Shown here: positions 5,256 through 32,575 of the stretch, piece by piece
How positions within the stretch are numbered: position 1 is the stretch's first letter
Layout: each line of letters begins with the position of its first letter
Source: a virus
Lineage: Duplodnaviria > Caudoviricetes
Virus record (IMG/VR): IMGVR_UViG_3300033075_000428
Coordinates: 126,354-190,353 of that record
Strand: one strand, 5' to 3'
DNA: 64,000 nt
Notes under the pieces: model-generated
The model's database searches: none
Told to the model about the DNA's origin: nothing
The model's input: the letters and a program-made list of their open reading frames with translations, nothing else
Program-made: the position numbers and the translations under genes

Positions 5256-5951
5256 TTAGAAAGATTCTATGCTAGATATCGCACTCTCATATCTAGGCTT
5301 CAAGAACTGTTCGACTTCTCTTTTCCTCTCTCTCAACTCACACATAAGGTCTGGATTGATGACTGAGATAGCACCATTCGTTAACTTATTGAGTTCTCGA
5401 TCACGTTGTAGACATACGTCCATTCCAGTAGTGAAGACCTTATGCATATGAGTGTTCCCTGAGAAGATTTCATCATAGCAGAAGTAGACAAGGTCTAGCA
5501 TATCACAGAATTTCATGACTTCCCATGCGGGCTGTGTATGAGCCTTCTTCTCTTGAAGAATGTACATAGAGTATGATTTCAGTACTTCATTACCAGAGAA
5601 CTGTTCGTTGACGAACCTTGTCTCAACGTCTTCTTGATAGTACTTTGAAGACTTGAATGGATAAGGAATATCCCCTACGTAAGCTTCTTCCAAATCATGA
5701 AAGAGTGAATAGCGCATGGCTGTCTCTGTGTTAATCTTCGGACAATTGGACAGAGACTCTAACTCTTCAGGTTCGCATTCTGCTATCTTTTCTCGTAACC
5801 GTTTGTTATAGTCATCACAAATCATCATCGTGAGCATTGTCACTCGATACGAGTGGTCTGCAACATTTTGCTCTTTGTTGTTACGGAGATTAGAAAATCG
5901 GTTGATGTTCGATAACGTCTGAATGACGCTGAAAGCACTATCGATGCTCAT
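5256..5951 (-). CDS. HD-domain deoxynucleotide phosphohydrolase (YfbR/DatZ-like)
   Basis: NRFS, QNVADHSYRV, LFHDLEEAYVGDIPYPFK, KFCDMLD. Confidence 0.85.
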   Translation of the reverse strand: MSIDSAFSVIQTLSNINRFSNLRNNKEQNVADHSYRVTMLTMMICDDYNKRLREKIAECEPEELESLSNCPKINTETAMRYSLFHDLEEAYVGDIPYPFKSSKYYQEDVETRFVNEQFSGNEVLKSYSMYILQEKKAHTQPAWEVMKFCDMLDLVYFCYDEIFSGNTHMHKVFTTGMDVCLQRDRELNKLTNGAISVINPDLMCELRERKREVEQFLKPRYESAISSIESF

Positions 5952-9600: not shown

Positions 9601-10392
9601 TCAAGACTGAGACATGATGTCTCTTTGATGGTTAAGCTTGTCAGACAACAAGTTGTTGTACACTAAGTATGACAAGCGAACCAATGACGCAGACAGTTTC
9701 TCATTCTCACAAACAGGGAACACTACAGCATGCTGAGAAATCAATGGTTGTTCTGACGATGAACTAAACTTGTGATAGAGTTCTTCATACTTCAATAGGA
9801 TACGCTTCCTGTCTTGTATCTTTAGGTTGTCTAGCTCATCAATATTCTCACGTTCACTTGAGAACTTCGGATACAAGTTTGAGTCTACAAAGAACACAGT
9901 AAGATGTGGAGTTGGTGGTTGAATCAACTTGTATTCAACAGACCAGATAAGCTCTTCGGGGATGTTGTTCAATGTCGTCGGGTACACTAGATTGCTAAAC
10001 CAATATCGGTCGCACAATGCAACACCCTGTTGCGCAATGTGCTCAAGAATCATCGGGTATGTCAACGCATGTGACAATGCGTGTGACAGAATCTTCTGTT
10101 GAATAGTGGCGTTTGGAAGTCTGGTAATCTTGACCAGATTCATATGGTCTTGCTTGTTGGGGAAGGTGAACACCCGAGAACTAACGTTGGTAACCGTCTT
10201 GAGTGCATGTGAGAACAGCTTTACTAGTGTTGATTTCCCTAGCTTATCAGCACCCTCGAATACGATTAGTTTTCCAGCAAATGCAGTTGGTCTCGAAAAC
10301 GGTACCTGACGTTCAAGTTCTTCCAATGCAAGTTGCTCATCAATGCTAAAATACTCATTTTGAGTAAATTCGTTTGGCAAATCACTAGACAT
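9601..10392 (-). CDS. tmk: Thymidylate-kinase-family dNMP kinase (probable 5-hmdUMP kinase)
   Basis: IVFEGADKLGKST P-loop and CDRYWFSNLVY motif. Confidence 0.85.
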   Translation of the reverse strand: MSSDLPNEFTQNEYFSIDEQLALEELERQVPFSRPTAFAGKLIVFEGADKLGKSTLVKLFSHALKTVTNVSSRVFTFPNKQDHMNLVKITRLPNATIQQKILSHALSHALTYPMILEHIAQQGVALCDRYWFSNLVYPTTLNNIPEELIWSVEYKLIQPPTPHLTVFFVDSNLYPKFSSERENIDELDNLKIQDRKRILLKYEELYHKFSSSSEQPLISQHAVVFPVCENEKLSASLVRLSYLVYNNLLSDKLNHQRDIMSQS

Positions 10393-13300
10393 TTAGACTC
10401 TCTCTTTTAGGTTCAACTTAAATTCAATTTTGTCGCCAGCGTTAATGAACTGGTTCACATTGTCTACTGATTCTTCGGAAGTCGATATTTCGGTGACTTC
10501 AACATCATAGGCCATTGCAAGCCTCTTGACGATGTCTTGTAAGTCCTGTTCGAATCCTGAACCTTCCATGTGGTAAGAACCATCATCATGCTTCTCAATC
10601 TCAAGCTCACAAGCTCCACCCCAAGAAGAACCAATTTCAACGTCACACCGTAGGGGCATTCCGTTAAGCCATTGGTAACGCTCTTGTGGAATGGTCTCCA
10701 TATGGAGTTTGAAGACGTCATAAATCTGAATCAATTCCGATGGGAATACATCAACTTCAATTGAGTCATGAACTGTGCCTATCATCTTAGAACGTAAACC
10801 AGTATTCCAGATATGCTCTTGAATACGGAGTGTCGCATCAAACGTCAAGTCGGAGTTATGCACGAAGACACCAGAAGCAAGAGCAAAGTTGTGGTACTCA
10901 TCTACGCTGATATCGTAAACACTTATCTCTTCTTTTGAAGAAATCAATGATACTGTATCAATCTTTACTGTTTGACTACTACCCAGTTCACAAACACCAG
11001 AAAGTTCATGCCCCCTAGTCAGATTTTGAGCTTCACAATAAGTCCCATCTGTGAGAAGAAACAAATGATCAGGCGTGCAAGTCACAGTCTGACCACTGAT
11101 GAGTGATACAGAGCATAGGATGGTAACAGACGTAGTTTTTCTTGCTGAATGACCCTTCCCAAAAACTATGTTTCCAGACTTATCAGAGGATAGTACACGG
11201 AAGTCTGTGACACCGACAAGGTCTTCTATTTTTACGAAACTATGTAGTCCACCCTCTGTGATAACTATTATCTCAGTGTCACCTGTGAAACAGGATGTCG
11301 ACTGAATAGGAGAATTTTGAGCTTCTCGTTCACTCTTCAACACTTCAAACTTCTGTTTTGAATCAATGGAACGAAGCCATCTTCTTCTACCGAATGGTGT
11401 TGTCACATACTTATTCGCACGAAGAAACTTATGTTGTTCGTTGATCCAAGACTTCACATTTGGAAATCCCTTGAAGAAGTAGTCAATGTACGTCTGTGCT
11501 TCATCTATGGAGATTCCTAGTTCCTCAGAGAGTGACTTGGATTGCTTACCGTAGAGAATGCCGAACACAACAGCCTTCGCACTCTTACGCTCTTTCTTCG
11601 AGACTTGCTCAACAGGCTTATTGAAGATTCGTCCAGCAGTTAGTGCGTGAACGTCTAGTCCCTCTTTGTATGCAGAGATGAATCCATCGTCATTTGCTAG
11701 AGCACCGATGACACGTACTTCAAGCTGTGAATAGTCAGCCGCCATAATCAGACCACCAGTTTCAGCGAACCGCGATGACACAAGACGCTTAACGTCAGTG
11801 TTCCCTGAAGGAAGTGTATGGAAGTAACTCGACAGTCTTCCTGTTGCAGTGCCGATGACGTTGTAGTCAGGTAGGTACATCCCAGTTTCAGGGTGTAGAC
11901 TCTCAGGTTCTGACAACGGCTCAAGATATGTTGACAGAATCTTGACGAGGCCACGTAAGCTAGATATGATTTGAGCTATCTTCTTGGCTTCACGAGAGAC
12001 TCGAATGTCATCAGTCTTGAGAATTATCTGGAGTGCTGACTCAGCCACAGAAGGTTTGTTTCCTTCTGTCATCTCGACAACAGGACAGTGGAGATAATTT
12101 GGCGAGTAGAACAGTTCCTGAAGTTGTAACAAGCTATTTGGGTTGAATTCAAACTTCTTCTTTTCAGCTGTCTTGTTTACAATGAAGGTTTCAACAGTCG
12201 GTAGTTTCTTTAGACCTTCACGGAAAAACTCAATGTTCTCTGTATACTTCGTTATGAGAACATCTCGTTGAGCCCAATCAATCTGAATTCCTTCTGTTTC
12301 CAGTGCAATGAATACAGGGATGCTTCGTAGAAGGAACTGATAGCCATCGGTCTTGTACTCCCTCATTCTCTTGTCAAGAGCCTCGAATAACAACAACGTT
12401 GCTATAGCATCCAATGCACCGTATGTTGAAATCGTTGTGTACTTAACGTTGAAGAAGTGTCGGTCTTTTTTCAGTCGATGGCTGTTCAATTGCTCGTGTA
12501 AGTCTTTCTCCCATGTCATGTCGAATCCGAGCACCAGACGGGAAAGGTCTTTCAGGTTTAGGTCAATGCCACTGTCTCGACGAGCACCAAAGATATAGTA
12601 GCCCATGTAAAGTGTATCGGCATAAATCTTAAAGTCCTGAATTGGAATGTTCAAGTGCTTATGACACCACTTCAAGTCGAAGATGATGTTGTGGCCAACA
12701 ATAGGTATTGTCCTGAGTATCTTCCGTACACACTGGTTAACTAAATCTGTATGCTCTACCGTGATTAGAAGTTCAGGATGTTCAACGCCAACGAAGAAAC
12801 CTTCTCGTGTCTCAGGGTCGGAGAAGCAATAGCCAATAATCTTGCTGTCAGGAAGGTTCCATTCCAGATTCTTAGTCTCGATGTCGAAGACAACGTATGG
12901 GAAGTTTCCATTCTTGTATCTCGTAATTAAGTCTGTTGTGTATTCCAAAAACTCCCAAGGCTCCAGCACACGAGACTTAATCTGCGACGAGACGTCAGAA
13001 ACTCCAGAGACTTTGTTGCTTATGTTCTGAAGTATCTGAATGAACTTCTCATGATAAGAGAAGTTCATCATCACGTACGTTGGAGATGGTATCGGGATAA
13101 TTGGAAGTGCTAACTGTGTGCCATCTGGGAGACCAAATGACACTGGGTACTCATTGCCTGCAATTGACAAGATTCCTGACTCATTACTGGGCAGGAATAG
13201 CTTTGTGGCGGTTGAACCACAGGTAATAACATAGCGCAACGAGTTCTTAAACCGTTGAAACTCATACTGCAGGTGGGTGGAGGCACACAGTTGAACTGAT

Positions 13301-13620
13301 TGCTCTGGTGGTGCGGCAAGCTTGCCTGAGAATACGTTCTGTCCTTCGTATGAGATGCACTTCGTCAGAGAAGTGAAGTATATGTCTTCTGGTTTGAATC
13401 CAACTTTAGTCAGTGAAGTGATGAGCAAATCAGCACTATCGCCAACCATGAGTTCACCACGCTCGTCTTCTGTTCGATTTGGGGATTCTACAATCACCAT
13501 TACCTTTGGTGAGAGTTGTCCTTTACCTGAAATAGCGATAGTCTTAGCGCAATTCGACAGTGCGCACCATTTTGAGGAGGAACACCGTGAAGATTCTTTC
13601 CCGACGATTGGTAAGTCCAT
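10393..13620 (-). CDS. polA: Family A DNA polymerase with N-terminal family-4 UDG-like domain, 3'-5' exonuclease and an intein
   Basis: FDIET, GHNIIFD and YGALD exonuclease motifs; TATGRLSS; motif A DYSQLEVR; motif B RKSAKAVVFGILYG; motif C TVHDSI; N-terminal ESP...ED..G..VG UDG4-like pattern. Confidence 0.95.
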   Translation of the reverse strand: MDLPIVGKESSRCSSSKWCALSNCAKTIAISGKGQLSPKVMVIVESPNRTEDERGELMVGDSADLLITSLTKVGFKPEDIYFTSLTKCISYEGQNVFSGKLAAPPEQSVQLCASTHLQYEFQRFKNSLRYVITCGSTATKLFLPSNESGILSIAGNEYPVSFGLPDGTQLALPIIPIPSPTYVMMNFSYHEKFIQILQNISNKVSGVSDVSSQIKSRVLEPWEFLEYTTDLITRYKNGNFPYVVFDIETKNLEWNLPDSKIIGYCFSDPETREGFFVGVEHPELLITVEHTDLVNQCVRKILRTIPIVGHNIIFDLKWCHKHLNIPIQDFKIYADTLYMGYYIFGARRDSGIDLNLKDLSRLVLGFDMTWEKDLHEQLNSHRLKKDRHFFNVKYTTISTYGALDAIATLLLFEALDKRMREYKTDGYQFLLRSIPVFIALETEGIQIDWAQRDVLITKYTENIEFFREGLKKLPTVETFIVNKTAEKKKFEFNPNSLLQLQELFYSPNYLHCPVVEMTEGNKPSVAESALQIILKTDDIRVSREAKKIAQIISSLRGLVKILSTYLEPLSEPESLHPETGMYLPDYNVIGTATGRLSSYFHTLPSGNTDVKRLVSSRFAETGGLIMAADYSQLEVRVIGALANDDGFISAYKEGLDVHALTAGRIFNKPVEQVSKKERKSAKAVVFGILYGKQSKSLSEELGISIDEAQTYIDYFFKGFPNVKSWINEQHKFLRANKYVTTPFGRRRWLRSIDSKQKFEVLKSEREAQNSPIQSTSCFTGDTEIIVITEGGLHSFVKIEDLVGVTDFRVLSSDKSGNIVFGKGHSARKTTSVTILCSVSLISGQTVTCTPDHLFLLTDGTYCEAQNLTRGHELSGVCELGSSQTVKIDTVSLISSKEEISVYDISVDEYHNFALASGVFVHNSDLTFDATLRIQEHIWNTGLRSKMIGTVHDSIEVDVFPSELIQIYDVFKLHMETIPQERYQWLNGMPLRCDVEIGSSWGGACELEIEKHDDGSYHMEGSGFEQDLQDIVKRLAMAYDVEVTEISTSEESVDNVNQFINAGDKIEFKLNLKERV
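10855..11292 (-). mobile_element. Mini-intein (146 aa, no homing endonuclease) in the DNA polymerase
   Basis: Begins CFTGDT after NSPIQSTS; block B CTPDHLF; ends VYDISVDEYHNFALASGVFVHN followed by Ser (+1 extein SDLTF). Confidence 0.92.
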
Positions 13621-20783: not shown

Positions 20784-21938
20784 TTAGATGATTGGTTGGT
20801 TGTTAAGTTCTGTGTGTTCTTTGATGTTCTTCAAGAAACGGGCATCAACAGCTTGCTGGAGATATGAGTTGGACACTGCGCTAGAACAATAGGTATTGAA
20901 CTGGGAGTACAATGAGTTCTTTGTGTTGAGGTCAAAGGTCTTGTCCTTGAATATCAGTTCAAGGAATGGAATCGAGAAGTAGATTGCAATCGGGCAATTT
21001 GAACGAGTCTTCAACAGCGAAAGGAATTCTCCAGCCGCTATAGCAAGAGTGTCATGTGCTTCACGAACGGACTTCGCATTGAAGTATGTATCAAGACGAT
21101 GCTTGTACTGTGTGAACAGTTGGTCATATTCACCCAACGTACAGCCAGAAAATGGCATGTGGTTCTTTGGGTTGAACTTACTGTTCTCAGTAACTTGTTC
21201 TTCTTTCACTGCGTAAATCTTGTCAAGCACATTGTAGTACTTGTCATACACATGCAGGGACTGGGTGTGATGAGTATAGGTACCGACTTCTAAGTTGACA
21301 CAGCCAGCAACGAACTCTTGAATTGCGGAAAACTCAAAGAAATTGATACCACTGAATCCCCAGATGAGGTCATTGCTTCGATTGAAGACACTCATATTGA
21401 GCTTATTGTCTCGAACAAGGAACGACATAAACACATTGCAAGCTACATCTATCCCAGGTTGATGGTCGATTGGTGGGTAAGAGATAGTGATGAATGCGCG
21501 ACGTGTTGTCTTGTCATTGCGAAGAAGCTCGATACAGTGTTGCAACTGGTCAAATGTACCTGTGATTGGGCTTGGGAAAGCTCGTAGACGCACACCATAA
21601 GCAGAACGCCAAGTGTTGCCGTGGTCGTCTGAAAACTGTGGTGCTCGCTTCAAGAACGGAGTGAGATACTTTAGTTCATTGGAACCACCAAGAACCCAAA
21701 GGGTCTCAGCAATCTGGGCGATGACATTGGCACCACGCTCAGGGCAACGGATGATTCTATCTCTGGGGTCACTCGCCATGAGTGTTACAGACAACAATTC
21801 CTTTGTCTCACCAGCACGACTAGGAACAGTCTGTCCATAGTTCGTCATGGTGTTAGTCACTTGGTGAAGAAGGTCAGTCAGTCCGACACCCTCAAATGTA
21901 CCACCAATGAAATTGTCTTCTGCGGGTTCTTGTGTCAT
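20784..21938 (-). CDS. Thymidylate-synthase-family dUMP hydroxymethylase (likely start 21938; frame open to 22280)
   Basis: SRAGETKE, AETLW, AYGVRL, DQL, TRRA, DVACN (catalytic Cys), RSNDLIWG..IN (Asn indicates dUMP rather than dCMP specificity), SLHVY; lies beside dCMP deaminase and hypermodification genes. Confidence 0.85.
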   Translation of the reverse strand: MTQEPAEDNFIGGTFEGVGLTDLLHQVTNTMTNYGQTVPSRAGETKELLSVTLMASDPRDRIIRCPERGANVIAQIAETLWVLGGSNELKYLTPFLKRAPQFSDDHGNTWRSAYGVRLRAFPSPITGTFDQLQHCIELLRNDKTTRRAFITISYPPIDHQPGIDVACNVFMSFLVRDNKLNMSVFNRSNDLIWGFSGINFFEFSAIQEFVAGCVNLEVGTYTHHTQSLHVYDKYYNVLDKIYAVKEEQVTENSKFNPKNHMPFSGCTLGEYDQLFTQYKHRLDTYFNAKSVREAHDTLAIAAGEFLSLLKTRSNCPIAIYFSIPFLELIFKDKTFDLNTKNSLYSQFNTYCSSAVSNSYLQQAVDARFLKNIKEHTELNNQPII

Positions 21939-22080
21939 GTTATCAATCTTGGGTTGGGATATTGGGAAAGGTTTGGAATTCTGAAATATCTCCCTCATAT
22001 CAGAAATCAATATTTCAAGAGGATTGTCACTTGTATCATTATCAAATTCAACAACATACTTACGAGACACAAGTGGCGCA

Positions 22081-22542
22081 TCAAGATTCTTCGGGAAATG
22101 CGTCTTGGTTGAGGAACTCTGCGTCGTCGTATTGGTTTTCAGAGATTCCACGAAGGGAAACGATTTCTTCAATCTTATCTTTGGTAATAGGCTCATAGTC
22201 TTTCCGTGAATAAACAACGCCTTCGGGGGAAATGTAGTAGTACGTAGTAACGATATATCCCTTGCAAACTGCATCGTCAATGATTCGTAACTCCTTACTC
22301 TTGATTCTTGAGTTACCGATTATCATCGTTGGTGTAAGATGCTTTAGCAGGAAAAGTGATTTGCCCTTCGTGGCATCGTATTTAGCATTGCCGTCAATTT
22401 CAACCACAGCACAACGGAACTTTGGCACAATTACAAAATGCTCTGCTGGGATGACTTCTCCGTTACGATAAGTCTCTGAGCCATTGGATAATCTTGCGAT
22501 TAGATGACTCATCTTGCTGTAGAGTTTTCCTTCGTGAATCAC
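22081..22542 (-). CDS. Hypothetical protein
   Basis: 153-aa ORF between dCMP deaminase and the hydroxymethylase. Confidence 0.6.
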   Translation of the reverse strand: MIHEGKLYSKMSHLIARLSNGSETYRNGEVIPAEHFVIVPKFRCAVVEIDGNAKYDATKGKSLFLLKHLTPTMIIGNSRIKSKELRIIDDAVCKGYIVTTYYYISPEGVVYSRKDYEPITKDKIEEIVSLRGISENQYDDAEFLNQDAFPEES

Positions 22543-22643: not shown

Positions 22644-23090
22644 TTAGGTAGAGTGGTGTTCGAGTAGTTCCAATTGAACAAACTGCTCGAAATATTGCAT
22701 TGCTGCAAGGGTCGCGGGAGAACTGGGCACGTAGCTATTGGCGTAGACCACTCGGGTAATTCCAACTTGAATGATAGCCTTGATACAACCTTCGCATGGT
22801 TGATGGGTAACATAGATAGTGCATCCGTCAAGACAAATTCTGGACGCAACGAGTAGAGCGTTGAGTTCTGCGTGAACGCATCTAACACATCGCTGTTGGT
22901 CGTTGAGTAAGCATCCGACATCCAAGCAATGTGGAGTGTTTTTTGGCGAGCCATTGTACCCTGTTGAGATGATTCTGTTGTTAGTATCGACTAAAACTGC
23001 ACCAACTTTCAGTCTCTGACACGTTGACCGTGTTGAAACTTGGTGAGCTATGCCCATGAACATCTCATCGAACGAAGGTCTTGCCGACAT
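22644..23090 (-). CDS. dCMP deaminase (ComEB family)
   Basis: RSTC...VGA, TGYNG, HAE.NA and PCEGC zinc motifs. Confidence 0.95.
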   Translation of the reverse strand: MSARPSFDEMFMGIAHQVSTRSTCQRLKVGAVLVDTNNRIISTGYNGSPKNTPHCLDVGCLLNDQQRCVRCVHAELNALLVASRICLDGCTIYVTHQPCEGCIKAIIQVGITRVVYANSYVPSSPATLAAMQYFEQFVQLELLEHHST

Positions 23091-23125: not shown

Positions 23126-24067
23126 CTAGTAATTTCTGCGTCTACCCGTCCCACGGGCGATGTTGAAGTACTTTCTCGCTTCACAGAAAACGCTCTCAAC
23201 GTTGTTCATCGACAGATATGGTTGATTGCTATATGCAGCACGATAGTAGATTTCCATCCAGTCCTTTCCTGTTCGGTCACGAAGCTTATTGAACATCTCT
23301 TCTTGACGCATCCATGTTCTCTTGATGTACTCGGCAAGCACTTTTCTATTTGGTGTCGGGTCATTGTACATCTCTTGGAGTGACTGTATTGTCCCTGGGC
23401 CGACAGTTGCTAGGTCATGGTTGTCATCAAGCTTGTAAACAAAGTAATGCGGTCTACAGTAAGTTAGGTCTTGAACAATCTCAGAAGCTAAGAACTCACC
23501 AATCAACCGAACCTTTGAAAGTGTCTTCACAGCTTCCTGCAAAGAACTAGCCATTCGTAGCTCATTGTGAATGTCATCGATGTTCTTTGATACGAAGTCA
23601 AACATCAAGAGGAACTGAGCATGTTTGTCCTTACGGTATTCAGGGTCGAATTTCATCTGAGTGACGGTGTAAGCTGGGTTCCACAGCTTAACACCTTTCG
23701 CCATCTTTGAGTCCAGTACACGCTCGTAGAACTTCCAATCAAAGGTTCTTGGCTCAAGCACAGGGAACAGAATATCAAACGTGTTGTGGAGATTAAAGAC
23801 ACGTCCGATGATTAGGTTGAAGAGCTTTTCCTCTGGAGGTATTGTTTCCTTTGAACAGATGCGCTCAATGAGGTGGATACTTGTTTTGTCTAGTTCACGA
23901 TACACGTTGGTGAACTTATACGCCTGAAGCAATGGATTCGTTGTCCATGGCTTCGGCATCCCAAGCACAAAGCGGTTATGCCATACAAGTTGTCTGTCGT
24001 AAACGAATTCAAAGAGGTCATCCAATGTTGGCATGAACTCTTCAGGAAGCATTGCGTTGAGTGCCAT
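23126..24067 (-). CDS. Amino-acid/amine:DNA transferase, alpha-glutamyl/putrescinyl-thymine pyrophosphorylase clade 1 (aGPT-PPlase1)
   Basis: F..DRQ.VW..R...G.PKPWTTNP.L..YKFTNVYRELDKT signature, HhH-like IGEFLASEIVQDL, VGPG, E..FCE.RKY. Confidence 0.88.
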   Translation of the reverse strand: MALNAMLPEEFMPTLDDLFEFVYDRQLVWHNRFVLGMPKPWTTNPLLQAYKFTNVYRELDKTSIHLIERICSKETIPPEEKLFNLIIGRVFNLHNTFDILFPVLEPRTFDWKFYERVLDSKMAKGVKLWNPAYTVTQMKFDPEYRKDKHAQFLLMFDFVSKNIDDIHNELRMASSLQEAVKTLSKVRLIGEFLASEIVQDLTYCRPHYFVYKLDDNHDLATVGPGTIQSLQEMYNDPTPNRKVLAEYIKRTWMRQEEMFNKLRDRTGKDWMEIYYRAAYSNQPYLSMNNVESVFCEARKYFNIARGTGRRRNY

Positions 24068-24068
24068 G

Positions 24069-24500
24069 TTAGCTTGTGATATACTGTGGTGGTACGAATT
24101 CCCTTGGAAGAATGATGTTCTGTGGGATTGATTCGTAAATACTGAAGAAGACTTGTTGCATCTGCTCTATTGTAAATCCAGCAATTCCAGTTCCTATCTT
24201 CGTCATGAAGAACTTCATATTTGGATTAGTTCCAGCGATAATACAGAGCGTACTGACTTGATTCTCAATGTCTTTGAGCGTGATTCCAACAGTACCTGTT
24301 AGGTCAACTGTCATGATTGCGTAGCACTTTCCTTGGAATCCTATTGGGTTTCCTAACACTGCTCCAAAATGGTCAAGACACGTTCTAGCTAGTCCTGCTC
24401 CGTGTCTACCAGAGGTGTTGCTACCAAATACAATGTAAGTGCCCTGACCGTGAATGTCTTCATGGTCTAAGAATTCAGGAGTGAAGACTGAGCGCATCAT
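24069..24500 (-). CDS. Conserved phage protein of the VFGSNxxGxHGxGxA family (possibly macrodomain-like)
   Basis: IVFGSNTSGRHGAGLA...G.QG.CYAI...FFMTKIGTGIAGF...NIILP.EF. Confidence 0.75.
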   Translation of the reverse strand: MMRSVFTPEFLDHEDIHGQGTYIVFGSNTSGRHGAGLARTCLDHFGAVLGNPIGFQGKCYAIMTVDLTGTVGITLKDIENQVSTLCIIAGTNPNMKFFMTKIGTGIAGFTIEQMQQVFFSIYESIPQNIILPREFVPPQYITS

Positions 24501-25075
24501 GTCCTTGCAGAGTGTCGCATGACAGAATCCATAATGGACTCAACAATTCTAGCTGAGTCTGCTGGCGTATCATTCTTGACAAGGTTTGGAAAGTATGTGG
24601 ACTCTTCAATGATGTTCTTATACTTTGTTTTCCTTCCCTTCAAGAACTGCTCCTTCTGATTGATTCCTTTTTCTTTCCTCTGCTCACGACGTTGCGCTAG
24701 CACTTCGTCAGAACAGGTTAGAATGAACATCATAAGTGATGTGTTGGGGAGAGTGCGAAGATGATTGAAGAAGTTTTGTTGAAACAATCGGTCTCCCTCA
24801 AAGAGAACCACAATCTTCTGCTGTGGTGGAAGAGTAGATAGATGCGTTGCGAACTTGCGTCCATCTCTAAGAGCTATCATGGACAAGCGGTCTGTCCCAA
24901 GGAAAGCATTATCCACATTGTAGATGCCAAGTACAAATATCCCACCTTGATGCTTTGTGCCGCGAATTAAGTCGAACTGAAAGTCAGTTCCCTCACCCAA
25001 CTGTGGAAGTATCTGTTGCATGATGTTAGTCTTGCCAGTACCAGGCTCACCACCGATTGCAATGTATGTAATCAT
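24497..25075 (-). CDS. P-loop kinase, probable 5-hydroxymethyluracil DNA kinase (5-HMUDK)
   Basis: IGGEPGTGKT, LG.Y...F.GTDRLSM, LFEGDRLF, R...R...Q...FLKGR.TK pattern of the kinases linked to aGPT-PPlases. Confidence 0.82.
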   Translation of the reverse strand: MITYIAIGGEPGTGKTNIMQQILPQLGEGTDFQFDLIRGTKHQGGIFVLGIYNVDNAFLGTDRLSMIALRDGRKFATHLSTLPPQQKIVVLFEGDRLFQQNFFNHLRTLPNTSLMMFILTCSDEVLAQRREQRKEKGINQKEQFLKGRKTKYKNIIEESTYFPNLVKNDTPADSARIVESIMDSVMRHSART

Positions 25076-27828: not shown

Positions 27829-28794
27829 CTATAGCTCCCAGTATTTGGAGTACTTGTTCAACTTTTTGTCTGTGTAGTTTTCTGACAACAGACTGGCGTC
27901 GAATGTCTCTCGACGAAAGTCCCAGAGAACAGACCAATCGACACCTGATTTTACTCTAGATTGAAGTTCACGTATCTCTTTGGCTTGACGCTCAAGATAA
28001 TACCCAATCCAACGCTTCTTGATTTTGTATTTCTTGTAAGCACAGAGTGTGGTTTCGATGCTCCAGATGTTGTCGTTTGGGCGATACTTCTCAATCAAGG
28101 TCTTCAACTTCCCAAACTCAGCGTTCAGAAACTGAAGTGACTCCTTATCAATCTTCTTTTTGTCAAAGTGATTCATCAAGTCATCTTGCCCAAGAGCGAA
28201 GCACAGTCCATTTCTAGAACTCTCCGCATTAGCTAGGTCAAGCTCAGTTGGAATGAGTGGAATGCCTGTTGTGACATTCACCGCTTCCAAGTATACGAAC
28301 ATTCTGAACCTTCCGAACCACTTGACCTTCGAAAAATGCTTGAATGCGTTATTGTATGTTTCCATACTGTTCGCACCAGTCAACTCTCGATACTTCATGA
28401 GTTGTGTACCTTGCCCAACCAACTCAGAATAGCTCTTCACTACATCAACGAATTGGTTTCTGGAACGTATCCAAAGGCAGTCAGACTGGAAAATAGTCTT
28501 GTCCTTATTGGCGTACCACCAACGTTCAAGACGATTGAAGTCAATGTTCTCAAAATCTGGGAACTCGTTGTACATGTAGAAAACAGTAGGAGCGCAATAA
28601 CATGTAGCTGTTAAGAATGCTATCCATAACCGTTGTTCGATGTTCAACTCATAACGGTCACAGATGTAGTCAAGAAGTGGATTCTGGGGGTCAACGTCCT
28701 TGAACTTCATTGACTCATCATGGTACTTGAAGAACTCCAAGACTCTGTTCTCATACGGGAACAACGCTTGCACGTCAGATTGTAGTTCTGTCAT
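27829..28794 (-). CDS. Amino-acid:DNA transferase, aGPT-PPlase clade 2 (ADDT)
   Basis: DVDP...EQRLWIAFL...FPD...WW..N...FQSD, FGRFRMFVYLE, SRNGL, ETTLCAYKK, GYYLERQ..EI, GVDW..LWDFR. Confidence 0.85.
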   Translation of the reverse strand: MTELQSDVQALFPYENRVLEFFKYHDESMKFKDVDPQNPLLDYICDRYELNIEQRLWIAFLTATCYCAPTVFYMYNEFPDFENIDFNRLERWWYANKDKTIFQSDCLWIRSRNQFVDVVKSYSELVGQGTQLMKYRELTGANSMETYNNAFKHFSKVKWFGRFRMFVYLEAVNVTTGIPLIPTELDLANAESSRNGLCFALGQDDLMNHFDKKKIDKESLQFLNAEFGKLKTLIEKYRPNDNIWSIETTLCAYKKYKIKKRWIGYYLERQAKEIRELQSRVKSGVDWSVLWDFRRETFDASLLSENYTDKKLNKYSKYWEL

Positions 28795-29447
28795 TCAGCA
28801 CCACGGATTAAACTCTGTGCAATTATTGGCTCTAGTATAGGAAGTGATGTGCAATCAACTCCTAATGCTCGCTTAAAGATGTCTTTTGTTGATGCCCAAT
28901 ACACAGTCTGCTGGTCTTCAGTAACGTGATAGTACAATGGACGAAATTTGTTTCTTAGTAGTACAATCGTACCATTGCTAGTGTAAGCACCAGCGAATGA
29001 ACAATTCTCACGTATGACGTTTTCAGGGTGTTGAGGGTCGATCTTGACCCGAACAAGGAACATCTCTCCGTCATTGTCTGTCTGCATTGGCTGTTGTAGT
29101 TGAATCTCCATTTCCTCTTTCGTGGCCATGGAGATAACACCATTGAACGTCAATGCCTCACCACTGACAACCAATGGTTGATTGTTCTCAATCTGGTGGT
29201 AGTCACCGCTTGTTGAATACCTTGTGTGCCCAAGAATAGCTCGTGGGACAATAGGCAACTGCTTCAGGGAGATGAGTGCGTCGGTCAACTCCAAGAATCG
29301 CTCTACATGAATAACAGCGTTGTTATCATAGTATGCGTATCCAAAAGAGTGTAGGCCACGTATCTTAGCTTCATTGAAAAGCTTCTGCATATTGTGAATA
29401 TGCGTCTTGCTTGGTGCATTCGTGACGTAGCCAATTACTCCACACAT
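28791..29447 (-). CDS. Stand-alone class-II (Ntn) glutamine amidotransferase
   Basis: MCGVIG (N-terminal nucleophile Cys2), RGLHSFG, GHTRYSTSG, NQP, FNG, TDNDGE, R..RPL. Confidence 0.9.
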   Translation of the reverse strand: MCGVIGYVTNAPSKTHIHNMQKLFNEAKIRGLHSFGYAYYDNNAVIHVERFLELTDALISLKQLPIVPRAILGHTRYSTSGDYHQIENNQPLVVSGEALTFNGVISMATKEEMEIQLQQPMQTDNDGEMFLVRVKIDPQHPENVIRENCSFAGAYTSNGTIVLLRNKFRPLYYHVTEDQQTVYWASTKDIFKRALGVDCTSLPILEPIIAQSLIRGAE

Positions 29448-29450
29448 TGG

Positions 29451-30062
29451 TTAAACTCCTGTCTCGAGAAACGAGTCAACAGGAATGGGCTTGAACTTGT
29501 TTGAAATTGAGTCGAACTCAGTTCTACACTTTCCAAGATACTGGTTTCTTCTGCGAGTTGAGATTGGATTCTCATCTGTATCATACACAGAAGAGCTCAG
29601 TGCCTCTGATTTCAAAGTGTCCATATCAACATATGGAGCTACCTTGATATCATATACAAGCTCATCATTCGTTGTTGCAATTGGCAAGAATCCAAGCTTG
29701 GCATAGAATGCGATAGCTCCTGGATTCTCCTTCAATACTTTCCATGTTAGACGTGTTAGTCCTTTAGCAACTGCTTCTTGTATGCCACGATTCATGAGCT
29801 CACGAGCAATGCCACGCCCTTGTGATTCAGGAGCTACATACACATAGTACATGTTAGCATAAGTTGACTTCAAGTGCATTGCAGCGTAGAAGCCAACAAT
29901 CTTTCCGTCTTCAATTGCGATTAGTGGCGGAGTATTCTTCCAACCTTCATAGCGTACCCACACAAACGGGAACTCCTTGAGGAACTTCCAAGAGCTTTTC
30001 TTAACAAGCTGTGCAAGTTCAGCCTCATGTGTGTCTTTGTCAGCTGTTACATACTCAATCAT
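29451..30062 (-). CDS. GNAT-family acetyltransferase
   Basis: Motif A VYVAPESQGRGIARELM and motif B ENPGAIAFYAKLGF. Confidence 0.92.
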   Translation of the reverse strand: MIEYVTADKDTHEAELAQLVKKSSWKFLKEFPFVWVRYEGWKNTPPLIAIEDGKIVGFYAAMHLKSTYANMYYVYVAPESQGRGIARELMNRGIQEAVAKGLTRLTWKVLKENPGAIAFYAKLGFLPIATTNDELVYDIKVAPYVDMDTLKSEALSSSVYDTDENPISTRRRNQYLGKCRTEFDSISNKFKPIPVDSFLETGV

Positions 30063-30727
30063 AATGACCTCAAATTATTAAGCAGTTCTGTCACTTTGAC
30101 GATAGCTTGTTTTCTTCCGTCTTCAAATATCGAACGTTCCTGTATCTTAGGAACTGTATATTCACCAATCACAAGGAAACTCTCTTGGTCACAAACGTGG
30201 GGTACTGAGCAGAGATTAATATAGTGCTGTGTGGCTAACAGAGTTATCTCTACCAATACAGTGCACAATTCCTCAAGTGAGGGATGTATGAGAATCTTTG
30301 CTGTATCCTCATCTGAGTTCTTGTTTCTCAAAAGTCCAATCAACGACTCAATCTGTTCCTCTGTAACACTGCTTGAACCTTCACGAAGGTTCTCAGACAT
30401 CCACTCCAGAGTAACAGAAACAAGGCATTCAGACAAGTGGTGCCGTAATGAACGAATCTCTGCGGGGTGGTCTTCAACGTCATTCGGGGCTACACACCAT
30501 TCAAGTATCGAACCACGTCTGAAACACTTGACATATGAACCCATCTCATATGGCTTCACTGCGTTGTTCTGCATGAAGTCAAACAGCTGGTGTTGGTAGT
30601 CCGCTCGTAAGATAGGCTGTGGTTCCAACGGGTCTTTCGACCTCATGTCACCAAGTGAAAGTAGCCAGAATGACTCGATGTCTTCGATGTTGTCAAAGAT
30701 GTATTGAAGTTTCTCAACTGAGGTCAT
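30059..30727 (-). CDS. Hypothetical protein
   Basis: 222-aa ORF with ATGA coupling on both sides. Confidence 0.7.
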   Translation of the reverse strand: MTSVEKLQYIFDNIEDIESFWLLSLGDMRSKDPLEPQPILRADYQHQLFDFMQNNAVKPYEMGSYVKCFRRGSILEWCVAPNDVEDHPAEIRSLRHHLSECLVSVTLEWMSENLREGSSSVTEEQIESLIGLLRNKNSDEDTAKILIHPSLEELCTVLVEITLLATQHYINLCSVPHVCDQESFLVIGEYTVPKIQERSIFEDGRKQAIVKVTELLNNLRSL

Positions 30728-31028: not shown

Positions 31029-31841
31029 TTATGATTGTCCATGTAGGCTGTATCCAGTGTCAAGAAAGAACCTGCTAATCATCTTCGTGTCTTGTGACAT
31101 TGACGTTGCGATATAGCTCTTCAGGTATGAGATTGCCAATGGATTAAATACTGACATCCCATTCAATAAACCTTCGGTAAAGACGAAGTCACCTTCGGGT
31201 GTTCGCTTGAACTTCTTCCCAGCGTCACAATACTGATTGTACGAGCACTTGGCAATTAACTCAGGCAAGGTAATTTGCTGTCCGTCGTTGAACATTAACC
31301 CGTGCTGAGTTAACTGCTTATTGAATACTTTAGCAGTTGCAACAGTGTCATGCCAAGAGTCATGTGCACCAGTGTGTTCCTCACCAAGATAATCCTTGAC
31401 AGCAGACGTCAGATTCCTCGGGTTGAACTTCTTGTACACGGTACAAGCGTCCAGTGAACCAATGTACCGTGGGAAGTATTCATTACACCGAGCAAACTCT
31501 TCACGAAGCATTGGTATGTCAAACTCGTCAGAGTTAAATCCTACAATGACACTGTCCTCAAGGACACTGACCAGAGTTGGTATCAAATCACGGAACTTTG
31601 GTTTCCCAAAAACTGTCTCAACAGTTATGTTGTGAATTGGGTTCGGCATGAACGGTACACCTGGGTCTACCAGAGTGTCAAACGAGTATGACCCATTCTC
31701 AAATCCAGCACCCACACCAATGAGTGAAATCTGAAGAATGCTATCTTCAGGGATGCTCAGTCCAGTTGTCTCAACGTCTAGTGTCACTAGCTTTGAGATG
31801 TTGAACCTAAGACATAGTTCCTTCATTGATTCAATGTTCAT
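31029..31841 (-). CDS. DEDDh 3'-5' exonuclease (DNA pol III epsilon-like)
   Basis: LDVETTGL, GFNSDEFDIPML, HDSWHD. Confidence 0.92.
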   Translation of the reverse strand: MNIESMKELCLRFNISKLVTLDVETTGLSIPEDSILQISLIGVGAGFENGSYSFDTLVDPGVPFMPNPIHNITVETVFGKPKFRDLIPTLVSVLEDSVIVGFNSDEFDIPMLREEFARCNEYFPRYIGSLDACTVYKKFNPRNLTSAVKDYLGEEHTGAHDSWHDTVATAKVFNKQLTQHGLMFNDGQQITLPELIAKCSYNQYCDAGKKFKRTPEGDFVFTEGLLNGMSVFNPLAISYLKSYIATSMSQDTKMISRFFLDTGYSLHGQS

Positions 31842-32379
31842 CTTCGCCTTCTTGGGTTGATAGCACGTCTTTCACTGGTAGAGCAGGAACGACGGTTTCG
31901 CCATTGAAGAACTGGTCAAGCCCAACAGACTTGAAATCGTCTTCTGTCCACTCAACATGCTGTCCAGGGAGTTCCACTCCAGTCACCAGACTTCTACGCT
32001 TCAGCTGGTCGATACTGAAACAGGTCTTGCCGTTGTCTTTCGAGAACACTGATGGATTCCGCTTGTTCTGCCAACAGTGATTCCCACCCATATAGTCACT
32101 GATGTCAAGCCATTCGTCAGGGTGGTTGGTCAGTGGAGTAATATTCTTGAACGTAGCTAACGCTACTACAACTTCAAGTACCTCGAACAACGACACACCA
32201 TCAATTGCGGCTCCATGAATCTTCGTCACAATGTCAAGAACGTTAACCGCAAATGATGCTGTAACTTCAAACTCTGGATTGTCAGAATCATAGAATCCAG
32301 CGAGTTTGAGTTCATTCTTAGCGTGTTGACGAATCTTGTCAAATGGGATAGAGTCACTGTAGTTTAGTGGTTCAGGCAT
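31831..32379 (-). CDS. Conserved phage hypothetical protein (likely start ATG 32379)
   Basis: HA..EL.LAG and ITPLT..PDEW.D...WQNKR...VFS.D.GKT motifs; start overlaps the stop of the upstream 67-aa ORF. Confidence 0.7.
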   Translation of the reverse strand: MPEPLNYSDSIPFDKIRQHAKNELKLAGFYDSDNPEFEVTASFAVNVLDIVTKIHGAAIDGVSLFEVLEVVVALATFKNITPLTNHPDEWLDISDYMGGNHCWQNKRNPSVFSKDNGKTCFSIDQLKRRSLVTGVELPGQHVEWTEDDFKSVGLDQFFNGETVVPALPVKDVLSTQEGEDEH

Positions 32380-32575
32380 TGAGCACGTCCAGTATATCTG
32401 ATTTTGTAAACAGAACATCCTCGTGTGGACTCGTACCATCGTTAAAATGATAGTTGTCCTGAGGGAAGTCCACCCAAATCCAATCGTCCCCTTGGAATAC
32501 TCTCTGTTGTAGCTCACCAGACGTGGGGTGTTTCCTGAACAGGAACTTCACGATGTTTCTTACAACAGTGTCCAT
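32372..32575 (-). CDS. Hypothetical protein
   Basis: 67-aa ORF bridging both neighbours with short overlaps. Confidence 0.55.
   Translation of the reverse strand: MDTVVRNIVKFLFRKHPTSGELQQRVFQGDDWIWVDFPQDNYHFNDGTSPHEDVLFTKSDILDVLNA

Follow-up and report, generated by a model that had tools for sequence, protein, structure and literature searches.

The stretch analysed here, referred to as the window, is the final 64 kb of a single-contig virus record of 190,353 bp (IMG/VR IMGVR_UViG_3300033075_000428; direct terminal repeats, estimated completeness 100%). It carries tightly coupled genes for a GNAT N-acetyltransferase, a stand-alone class II N-terminal nucleophile (Ntn) glutaminase and a clade-2 DNA transferase, which we propose act together in the hypermodification of thymidine in phage DNA. 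All three lie on the minus strand: the GNAT (203 aa; PF00583, E 1.9e-20) at 29451..30062, the glutaminase (218 aa; PF13522, E 3.4e-10, and PF13537, E 6.3e-6) at 28791..29447, and the transferase (321 aa; PF18724) at 27829..28794. PF18724 is the Pfam family for the enzymes called ADDT or AADT, earlier named aGPT-Pplase clade 2 (aGPT-Pplase2), and the transferase is referred to below as ADDT. The aGPT-Pplases were reportedly first defined by Iyer et al. in 2013.

Read directly from the DNA, the stop codon TAA of the GNAT gene is followed by CCA and the ATG of the glutaminase gene, giving a 3-nt gap with AGGAG 9 nt 5′ of that ATG, and an ATGA is common to the glutaminase stop and the ADDT start. 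The coupling of the three genes noted in the initial annotation of the locus is thus borne out, while the extent given there was too short. A further gene, hyp222 (30059..30727, minus strand; 222 aa), is located upstream of the GNAT gene and is ATGA-coupled to it, so that the coupled unit extends beyond three genes. No family was assigned to hyp222 in Pfam, PHROG or NCBIfam, a protein atlas gave no lead and only a poor model, and no homologue was found among 43 related IMG/VR loci; given this last result, hyp222 does not appear to be a conserved member of the pathway. Promoter and terminator scans performed no better than on shuffled sequence and so defined no operon boundaries. A megablast search of 50,697 phage records with this region returned no match, and no close cultured relative was found.

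The glutaminase begins with MCGVIGY, placing a cysteine directly after the initiator methionine. Its best-matching families are the PurF, GlmS and AsnB amidotransferases, and the searches returned no match to GATase_4, a family of the amidohydrolase type. Because the matches are limited to the N-terminal domains of these enzymes (the first ~194 of 432 PurF positions and the first ~129 of ~600 GlmS positions), the protein has no synthase domain, in keeping with its initial description as a stand-alone Ntn amidotransferase with an intact Cys2. C2, R30-G31, R76, T79, N102-G103 and D126 do not vary among 18 split glutaminase relatives. In the alignment they correspond to the PurF residues for catalysis and glutamine binding (the Cys nucleophile, Arg-Gly, Arg...Thr, the Asn-Gly oxyanion hole and Asp), which in E. 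coli PurF numbering are Cys1, Arg26-Gly27, Arg73, Thr76, Asn101-Gly102 and Asp127. The protein is the predicted ammonia donor, with Cys2 as its nucleophile.

Viral contigs gave no glutaminase match in a pattern search with one sequence, an alignment-based search succeeded, and phmmer searches of the glutaminase and ADDT against PDB sequences gave nothing useful. Among cultured phages, tblastn matches in a PaP3-like locus and in Vibrio phage 1.293.O (L116 and L117 in our set) were considered as members of the same system and rejected; the encoded proteins are longer, and those of the PaP3 type are multidomain and ~27% identical. The genes in question, annotated as glutamine amidotransferases, lie among amidoligase, COOH-NH2 ligase, ATP-grasp and γ-glutamyl cyclotransferase clusters, which represent a different, likewise uncharacterised phage system.

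The assignment of ADDT to aGPT-Pplase clade 2, as first annotated, was confirmed both by its PF18724 score (63.3 bits over a cut-off of 26.2) and by its fold. A profile search of PDB sequences returned no match for ADDT, and a fold search was used instead. The AlphaFold model (predicted local distance difference test score, pLDDT, 92.6) found its best solved matches in gp46 of phage PaMx11 (8Z2N and 8Z2M; probability 1.00, TM score 0.53-0.59), with an E value of 2e-3 that lies just above the tool's line of 1e-3. ADDT E247, T248 and C251 align with E243, T244 and C247 of gp46 in a Glu-Thr-x-x-Cys motif and, apart from S/T at position 248, are invariant in the fused relatives described below. 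E243-T244 is the metal-binding Glu-Thr pair of gp46 and C247 is the cysteine for attack at C6 of the base, with E247-T248 and C251 as the ADDT counterparts. An hhalign comparison of the ADDT profile with gp46 gave a probability of 7.6%, and the alignment was used only where MAFFT and the catalytic motifs concurred. The glycine substrate of gp46 is contacted by W146 and K150 (PMC11472151), which correspond to F163 and V167 in ADDT and to F/Y/H and I/V/L/A/N across its clade; as aligned, the ADDT pocket is not of the glycine type. The closest relatives of ADDT in cultured phages are the ViI-type genes, with 26% identical residues across 94% of the length. ADDT is the predicted acceptor (synthase) subunit, with 5-phosphomethyl-deoxyuridine (5-phosphomethyl-dU) in DNA as its predicted substrate.

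The association between the two proteins was surveyed from both sides. At 43 IMG/VR loci encoding an ADDT 38-52% identical to that of the window, a glutaminase gene stands directly upstream of the ADDT gene wherever the locus has upstream DNA. A reverse survey by glutaminase profile, from which the best 80 of 183 loci were retained, was pooled with these 43 loci and gave 74 distinct glutaminases, 71 of them with 1.4 kb or more of DNA downstream; these 71 form the denominator of the survey. ADDT is encoded at every one (71/71), a kinase at 69/71, a Tet/JBP dioxygenase at 65/71 and a GNAT at 43/71, and neither a thymidylate synthase (TS) homologue nor a homologue of a gp47-like flavin adenine dinucleotide (FAD) lyase or a pyridoxal phosphate (PLP) enzyme is found at any (0/71 each). 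The conserved core is thus glutaminase, ADDT and kinase, with the GNAT frequent yet optional. Of the triad singled out in the initial annotation, the glutaminase-ADDT pairing is conserved throughout, while the GNAT is shared by part of the loci only.

The two proteins are also joined naturally in at least 40 distinct glutaminase-ADDT fusions of 541-671 aa, with the glutaminase N-terminal and ADDT C-terminal, the same order as in the architecture of PurF, GlmS and AsnB. An Ntn amidotransferase requires this order, since only an N-terminal residue can serve as its nucleophile. The fused proteins diverge to 37% identity among themselves, and they retain glutaminase C2 in 38/40, R30, G31, R76, T79, N102, G103 and D126 in 40/40, and ADDT D35, Y66, E247, S/T248, C251, R269 and E273 in 40/40. 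The split pairs with invariant catalytic residues (n=18) share just 33-52% identity with the proteins of the window. A mirror-tree test of co-evolution was dropped, as neighbouring genes of one genome correlate anyway.

Several of the related loci have features of their own. One fused glutaminase-ADDT gene (P0031; L122:6001-7878, plus strand) lies on a 342-kb contig beside PARP, NUDIX, UvrD-helicase and GIY-YIG genes, which places the module in genomes of jumbo-phage size as well. A natural fusion of ADDT with a P-loop kinase (P0004; L120:296-2875, plus strand; 859 aa, with ~400 unassigned C-terminal residues) is flanked by a glutaminase fragment upstream and a Tet/JBP gene downstream. At another locus, without Tet/JBP, a radical-SAM-like open reading frame (L036:9088-10704, plus strand) follows genes for kinase, glutaminase, ADDT and GNAT and may represent an oxygen-independent start of the pathway.

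The initial annotation suggested modelling a glutaminase-transferase complex, and the predicted complex of the window's two proteins scored 0.86, the best of three controls scoring 0.00. The mark of 0.86 was reached by 58/80 solved complexes and by 2/110 mismatched pairs, counts that are rough since our own alignments were used. The runs concur in at least 92% of contacts, with a pLDDT of at least 89 for the partner. On the glutaminase, the predicted interface comprises residues 1, 28-33, 77, 79, 104, 167-170 and 186-189, and corresponds to the face bearing Cys2, R30-G31, T79 and the stretch that follows N102-G103. On ADDT, it comprises segments 47-53, 76-88 and 283-289, which contain the invariant NEFPD and GVDWSVLWDFR motifs. 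These motifs flank the helices bearing Y66 and R269/E273, the aligned counterparts of residues of the gp46 pocket that the C5 methyl group faces (PMC11472151). The fold search of the ADDT model gave the gp46 entries as the only related solved structures, and no solved ADDT-glutaminase complex was found, which makes it unlikely that the passing score stems from model memory. The complex model supports binding between glutaminase and ADDT and does not show it.

The third enzyme of the operon, the GNAT, is 32% identical to PaMx11 gp48 over 88 residues (E 3e-10), and a gp48 search of the whole genome returned the window GNAT as its sole match (E 1e-7). GNATs of the related loci, which are small, are likewise homologous to gp48 (phmmer E values down to 4e-8), and at L037 and L042 the GNAT homologue adjoins ADDT. 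The window GNAT is a predicted 5-aminomethyl-dU N-acetyltransferase. The kinase, GNAT, ADDT and glutaminase genes are each present in one copy in the genome.

Other known tailoring enzymes were sought across all 190,353 bp. Domain searches of the complete genome found no Radical_SAM, DAO, Orn/Arg decarboxylase or class I/II aminotransferase domain, and tblastn of the complete genome gave no match to PaMx11 gp47, M6 gp52, M6 gp53 or the ViI-type PLP enzyme. The absence of PLP, radical-SAM and FAD enzymes, first noted for the window, therefore extends to the complete genome, and FAD or PLP tailoring genes elsewhere in the genome, which the initial annotation had named as a competing explanation for the base, were not found by these searches. 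No Pfam Tet_JBP match was found in the genome, a search that the control genomes cannot validate, and a hidden Markov model (HMM) built from the Tet genes of the related loci was also without a match in the genome.

Further genes for thymidine modification are present in the same gene string, all on the minus strand. Two of them lie 3-5 kb downstream of ADDT: a P-loop kinase, the predicted catalytic subunit of a 5-hydroxymethyldeoxyuridine (5-hmdU) DNA kinase (24497..25075; AAA_18, under the Pfam cut-off), and a 5-hmdU DNA kinase helical-domain protein (HMUDK_hel; 23126..24067; PF18723, E 2.8e-51). The P-loop kinase is 32-36% identical to the kinase adjoining ADDT in related loci, and a kinase HMM, with this protein in its seed, matched this gene and no other in the genome (E 1e-68). 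Homologues of the helical-domain protein are PaMx11 gp50 and M6 gp55, whose genes come after the kinase genes in those phages. Between the two genes, and overlapping both, lies a gene whose 143-aa product has an A1S_2505-family phage non-structural domain (24069-24500, minus strand; NCBIfam E 8e-31).

Next in the string are a dCMP deaminase for dUMP supply (22644..23090; PF00383, E 1.9e-26) and a thymidylate-synthase-family pyrimidine hydroxymethylase of 498 aa (20784..22280; PF00303), a predicted dUMP hydroxymethylase. The latter is the sole TS-family gene of the genome and is 35% identical to PaMx11 gp51; its nearest solved relative is the CMP 5-hydroxymethylase MilA (E 6e-25), as against 1e-13 for canonical TS. 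It has an N-terminal extension of ~170 aa without a family match. The presence of hydroxymethylase, dCMP deaminase, kinase and helical partner means that the phage has the machinery for making 5-hmdU before replication and for phosphorylating it in DNA. Formation of 5-hmdU in DNA and its phosphorylation are the entry to all characterised thymidine hypermodification pathways (PMC8989533).

More distant genes provide context. A dNMP kinase of the thymidylate type (9601..10392, minus strand; PF02223, E 2.9e-12) fits hmdUTP synthesis. Next to it is a family A DNA polymerase (10393..13620, minus strand; PF00476, PF03167 and PF14890) with an N-terminal uracil-DNA glycosylase (UDG) domain and an intein (Intein_splicing/Hint) that sits within the polymerase domain; polymerases of the UDG-PolA type have been reported for phages with T-modified genomes (PMC13697223; PMC12686479). 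An HD-domain 5′-deoxynucleotidase (YfbR-like; 5256..5951, minus strand; PF12917, E 9.8e-18) may clear canonical dTMP, and in PaMx11 an HD-domain gene adjoins the hydroxymethylase gene. On the other side, two genes upstream of the modification operon, a 228-aa Tad3-type protein (31831-32517, minus strand; PF25185, E 2e-21), related to an inhibitor of type I Thoeris, is encoded by a candidate anti-defence gene.

From these elements we propose the following pathway. Before replication, dCMP deaminase would supply dUMP, which the TS-family hydroxymethylase would convert to 5-hmdUMP; after further phosphorylation by a kinase, the polymerase would incorporate 5-hmdU in place of thymidine. After replication, the P-loop kinase and its helical partner would convert 5-hmdU in DNA to 5-phosphomethyl-dU. 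The glutaminase (218 aa) and ADDT (321 aa) would then work as one two-subunit glutamine amidotransferase, in which Cys2 of the glutaminase hydrolyses glutamine and the ammonia crosses the subunit interface into ADDT. In the chemistry proposed for gp46, attack of the cysteine at C6 and loss of phosphate to give an exocyclic methylene at C5 are followed by addition of the amine (PMC11472151), and ammonia from a docked glutaminase is a plausible nucleophile in a scheme of this kind. By analogy, ADDT Cys251 would attack C6 of the base, phosphate would leave to form the exocyclic methylene, and ammonia would add to the methylene carbon, yielding 5-aminomethyl-dU (5-NmdU). Acetylation of its primary amine by the GNAT would give 5-acetamidomethyl-dU (5-AcNmdU). 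The base of PaMx11 would thus be reached without glycine and without an FAD lyase, one glutamine-dependent step replacing two PaMx11 steps.

That the glutaminase-ADDT pair aminates 5-phosphomethyl-dU with glutamine-derived ammonia, and that the GNAT caps the amine, is the reading we favour with moderate confidence. Gene content, residues, co-occurrence, fusions and the predicted complex are observed, and from them we infer the substrate, the transfer of ammonia, the product and the acyl donor. The initial annotation had likewise cast the transferase as the synthase partner of the glutaminase, making 5-aminomethyl-dU for the GNAT, and the computational results support it in the co-occurrence, the fusions, the complex, the gp48-like GNATs and the lack, in the complete genome, of the FAD lyase, PLP and radical-SAM tailoring genes searched for.

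Several observations weigh against this reading. The co-occurrence and the fusions demonstrate joint action of the two proteins, not that ammonia is the transferred group. The serine-transferring ViI type is likewise without equivalents of W146 and K150, so the loss of these residues is not specific to ammonia. A GNAT is absent at 28/71 loci, and acetylation is therefore not obligatory for the system. The window GNAT is itself distant from gp48, at 203 aa with a C-terminal extension of ~70 aa vs ~135 aa, and its best phage matches include RimI-like genes of jumbo phages. In addition, hyp222 could add a step to the pathway.

These last points bear most directly on the possibility that amination proceeds as proposed while the end product differs, either because the GNAT takes its acyl group from a donor other than acetyl-CoA or because hyp222 adds a group, so that the base is not 5-AcNmdU. 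The C-terminal extension of the GNAT, the restriction of its identity with gp48 to 88 residues, the ATGA coupling of a protein of no known family and the combinatorial variation of tailoring genes among thymidine-modifying loci (PMC8989533) all fit such an outcome, which we nevertheless regard as rather unlikely: the family matches of the GNAT are to N-acetyltransferases of amines, gp48 matches nothing else in the genome, and hyp222 lacks a homologue in the 43 related loci. We give still less weight to the idea that the glutaminase is not the donor at all, ADDT transferring an amine or amino acid from the host pool while the glutaminase has a regulatory or structural role or supplies a metabolite locally. 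Stand-alone class II glutaminases are unusual, and distant phage homologues annotated as GATases occur in unrelated amidoligase and γ-glutamyl cyclotransferase clusters, which lends this idea some appeal. The PaP3-type proteins of those clusters, however, belong to another system by their length, domain content and low identity, and the full catalytic set is kept in the 58 split and fused members (C2 in 56). The invariable linkage to ADDT, the recurrent fusion and the position of the catalytic face at the predicted interface also speak against it, and we consider it very improbable.

The remaining alternative, raised already in the initial annotation, concerns the group that ADDT attaches. Ntn glutaminase folds can serve as amidohydrolases, as in EgtC, and the conserved Arg76/Asp126 pair would bind a γ-glutamyl moiety too. 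ADDT might thus attach glutamine, glutamate or a γ-glutamyl compound, and the Ntn enzyme might act as an amidohydrolase on the DNA-bound adduct, deamidating Gln to Glu or cleaving a γ-glutamyl link to leave a glutamyl-type or other undescribed base. The precedents for the transferase side agree with this, since every characterised clade-2 transferase moves an amino acid or a polyamine (PMC8989533; PMC13458397). Against it, Asp126 and Arg76 need a free α-amino group and an α-carboxylate, and an Nα-linked adduct has no free amine; the co-occurring gp48-like GNAT, moreover, indicates a small primary amine as product. Such trimming is disfavoured above all because the families matched are of the amidotransferase type (PurF, GlmS and AsnB, with GATase_4 not among the matches returned), because the predicted interface buries the Cys2 face against ADDT and leaves no space for duplex DNA, and because the fixed glutaminase-first fusion order is a hallmark of ammonia-channelling enzymes. 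We judge it unlikely, and continue with amination by glutamine-derived ammonia as the preferred reading.

The closest characterised counterpart of the proposed route is the 5-AcNmdU pathway of PaMx11, which comprises the glycine:DNA transferase gp46, the FAD lyase gp47 (acting on Nα-glycinylthymidine), the acetyltransferase gp48, the 5-hmdU DNA kinase gp49, gp50 and the hydroxymethylase gp51 (Lee et al. 2021, PMC8989533; Wen et al. 2024, PMC11472151). Like PaMx11, the window phage has a TS-family hydroxymethylase for pre-replicative 5-hmdU, a DNA kinase with a helical-domain partner homologous to gp50, a clade-2 transferase with the same fold and Glu-Thr-x-x-Cys motif, and a gp48-like GNAT, and the final base is probably common to both phages. 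Unlike PaMx11, its genome has no gp47-like FAD lyase, its transferase lacks the glycine-binding Trp146 and Lys150, and a class II glutaminase is coupled to the transferase, so that the amine would come from glutamine ammonia in one step and not from glycine in two. In Salmonella phage ViI and its kind, the serine:DNA transferase (gp247; 5-NeOmdU pathway) is the closest cultured-phage relative of ADDT and shares part of a C-terminal W...R motif with it; there the transferase is paired with a PLP decarboxylase and no glutaminase, whereas the genome of the window phage is without such a PLP enzyme.

A second relative is found in metaviromes, in cassettes that encode Tet/JBP (5mYOX), ParB, GATase, AADT and P-loop kinase (Lee et al. 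2021, PMC8989533; O'Toole et al. 2026, PMC13229309). The window phage shares with them the glutaminase family (33-42% identical), the ADDT clade (39-52%), the kinase, often the GNAT, and the same tight layout. The cassettes make 5-hydroxymethyluracil after replication by means of a thymine dioxygenase and ParB, whereas the window phage is without Tet/JBP and has instead a dUMP hydroxymethylase, a dCMP deaminase and the HMUDK helical-domain protein, in line with the lack of a TS homologue at any surveyed locus. With PurF, GlmS and AsnB the glutaminase shares the N-terminal Cys, the Arg-Gly, Arg...Thr and Asn-Gly oxyanion-hole elements and the Asp, as well as a catalytic face predicted to dock on the acceptor. 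The acceptor, a small metabolite in those enzymes, would here be a modified base in polymeric DNA, held by a DNA-glycosylase-like helical enzyme, and the two halves are separate polypeptides in the window phage.

The association of GATase genes with such loci has already been published, with no function assigned (Lee et al. 2021, PMC8989533), and GATases with P-loop kinases and AADTs were described around ParB-dependent thymine dioxygenases, again with no function assigned (O'Toole et al. 2026, PMC13229309). Full-text literature searches found no paper characterising the glutaminase. What is new is the combination of the glutaminase-ADDT-GNAT module with the pre-replicative hydroxymethylase route, which is seen in none of the 71 surveyed loci, together with the co-occurrence counts from both directions and a large family of fusions in which neither active site is impaired. 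The novelty claimed in the initial annotation, a new route to a modified thymidine, holds in part: the route would be new, while the gene association was on record and the expected base, 5-AcNmdU, is already known from PaMx11.

The window phage shows the module to be portable between two known ways of supplying 5-hydroxymethyluracil. On balance, the evidence leans toward the pair and its fused relatives being the first glutamine amidotransferase that acts on a nucleobase within polymeric DNA, with a DNA-glycosylase-like synthase half, and toward their forming a widespread glycine- and FAD-independent route to amine-bearing thymidines that serves both pre- and post-replicative sources of 5-hydroxymethyluracil. 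If so, the amidotransferase genes found beside DNA transferases would be assigned a function, as a new enzyme class of DNA-directed glutamine amidotransferases, and would offer a one-enzyme means of placing a reactive primary amine on DNA, for which the natural single-chain glutaminase-ADDT fusions are convenient test constructs. Host nucleases are kept from phage DNA by thymidine hypermodification, whose enzymes also serve as tools in sequencing and DNA chemistry. The proposed route would explain aminomethyl-type bases in a large group of uncultured phages, including those represented by jumbo-phage-like contigs.

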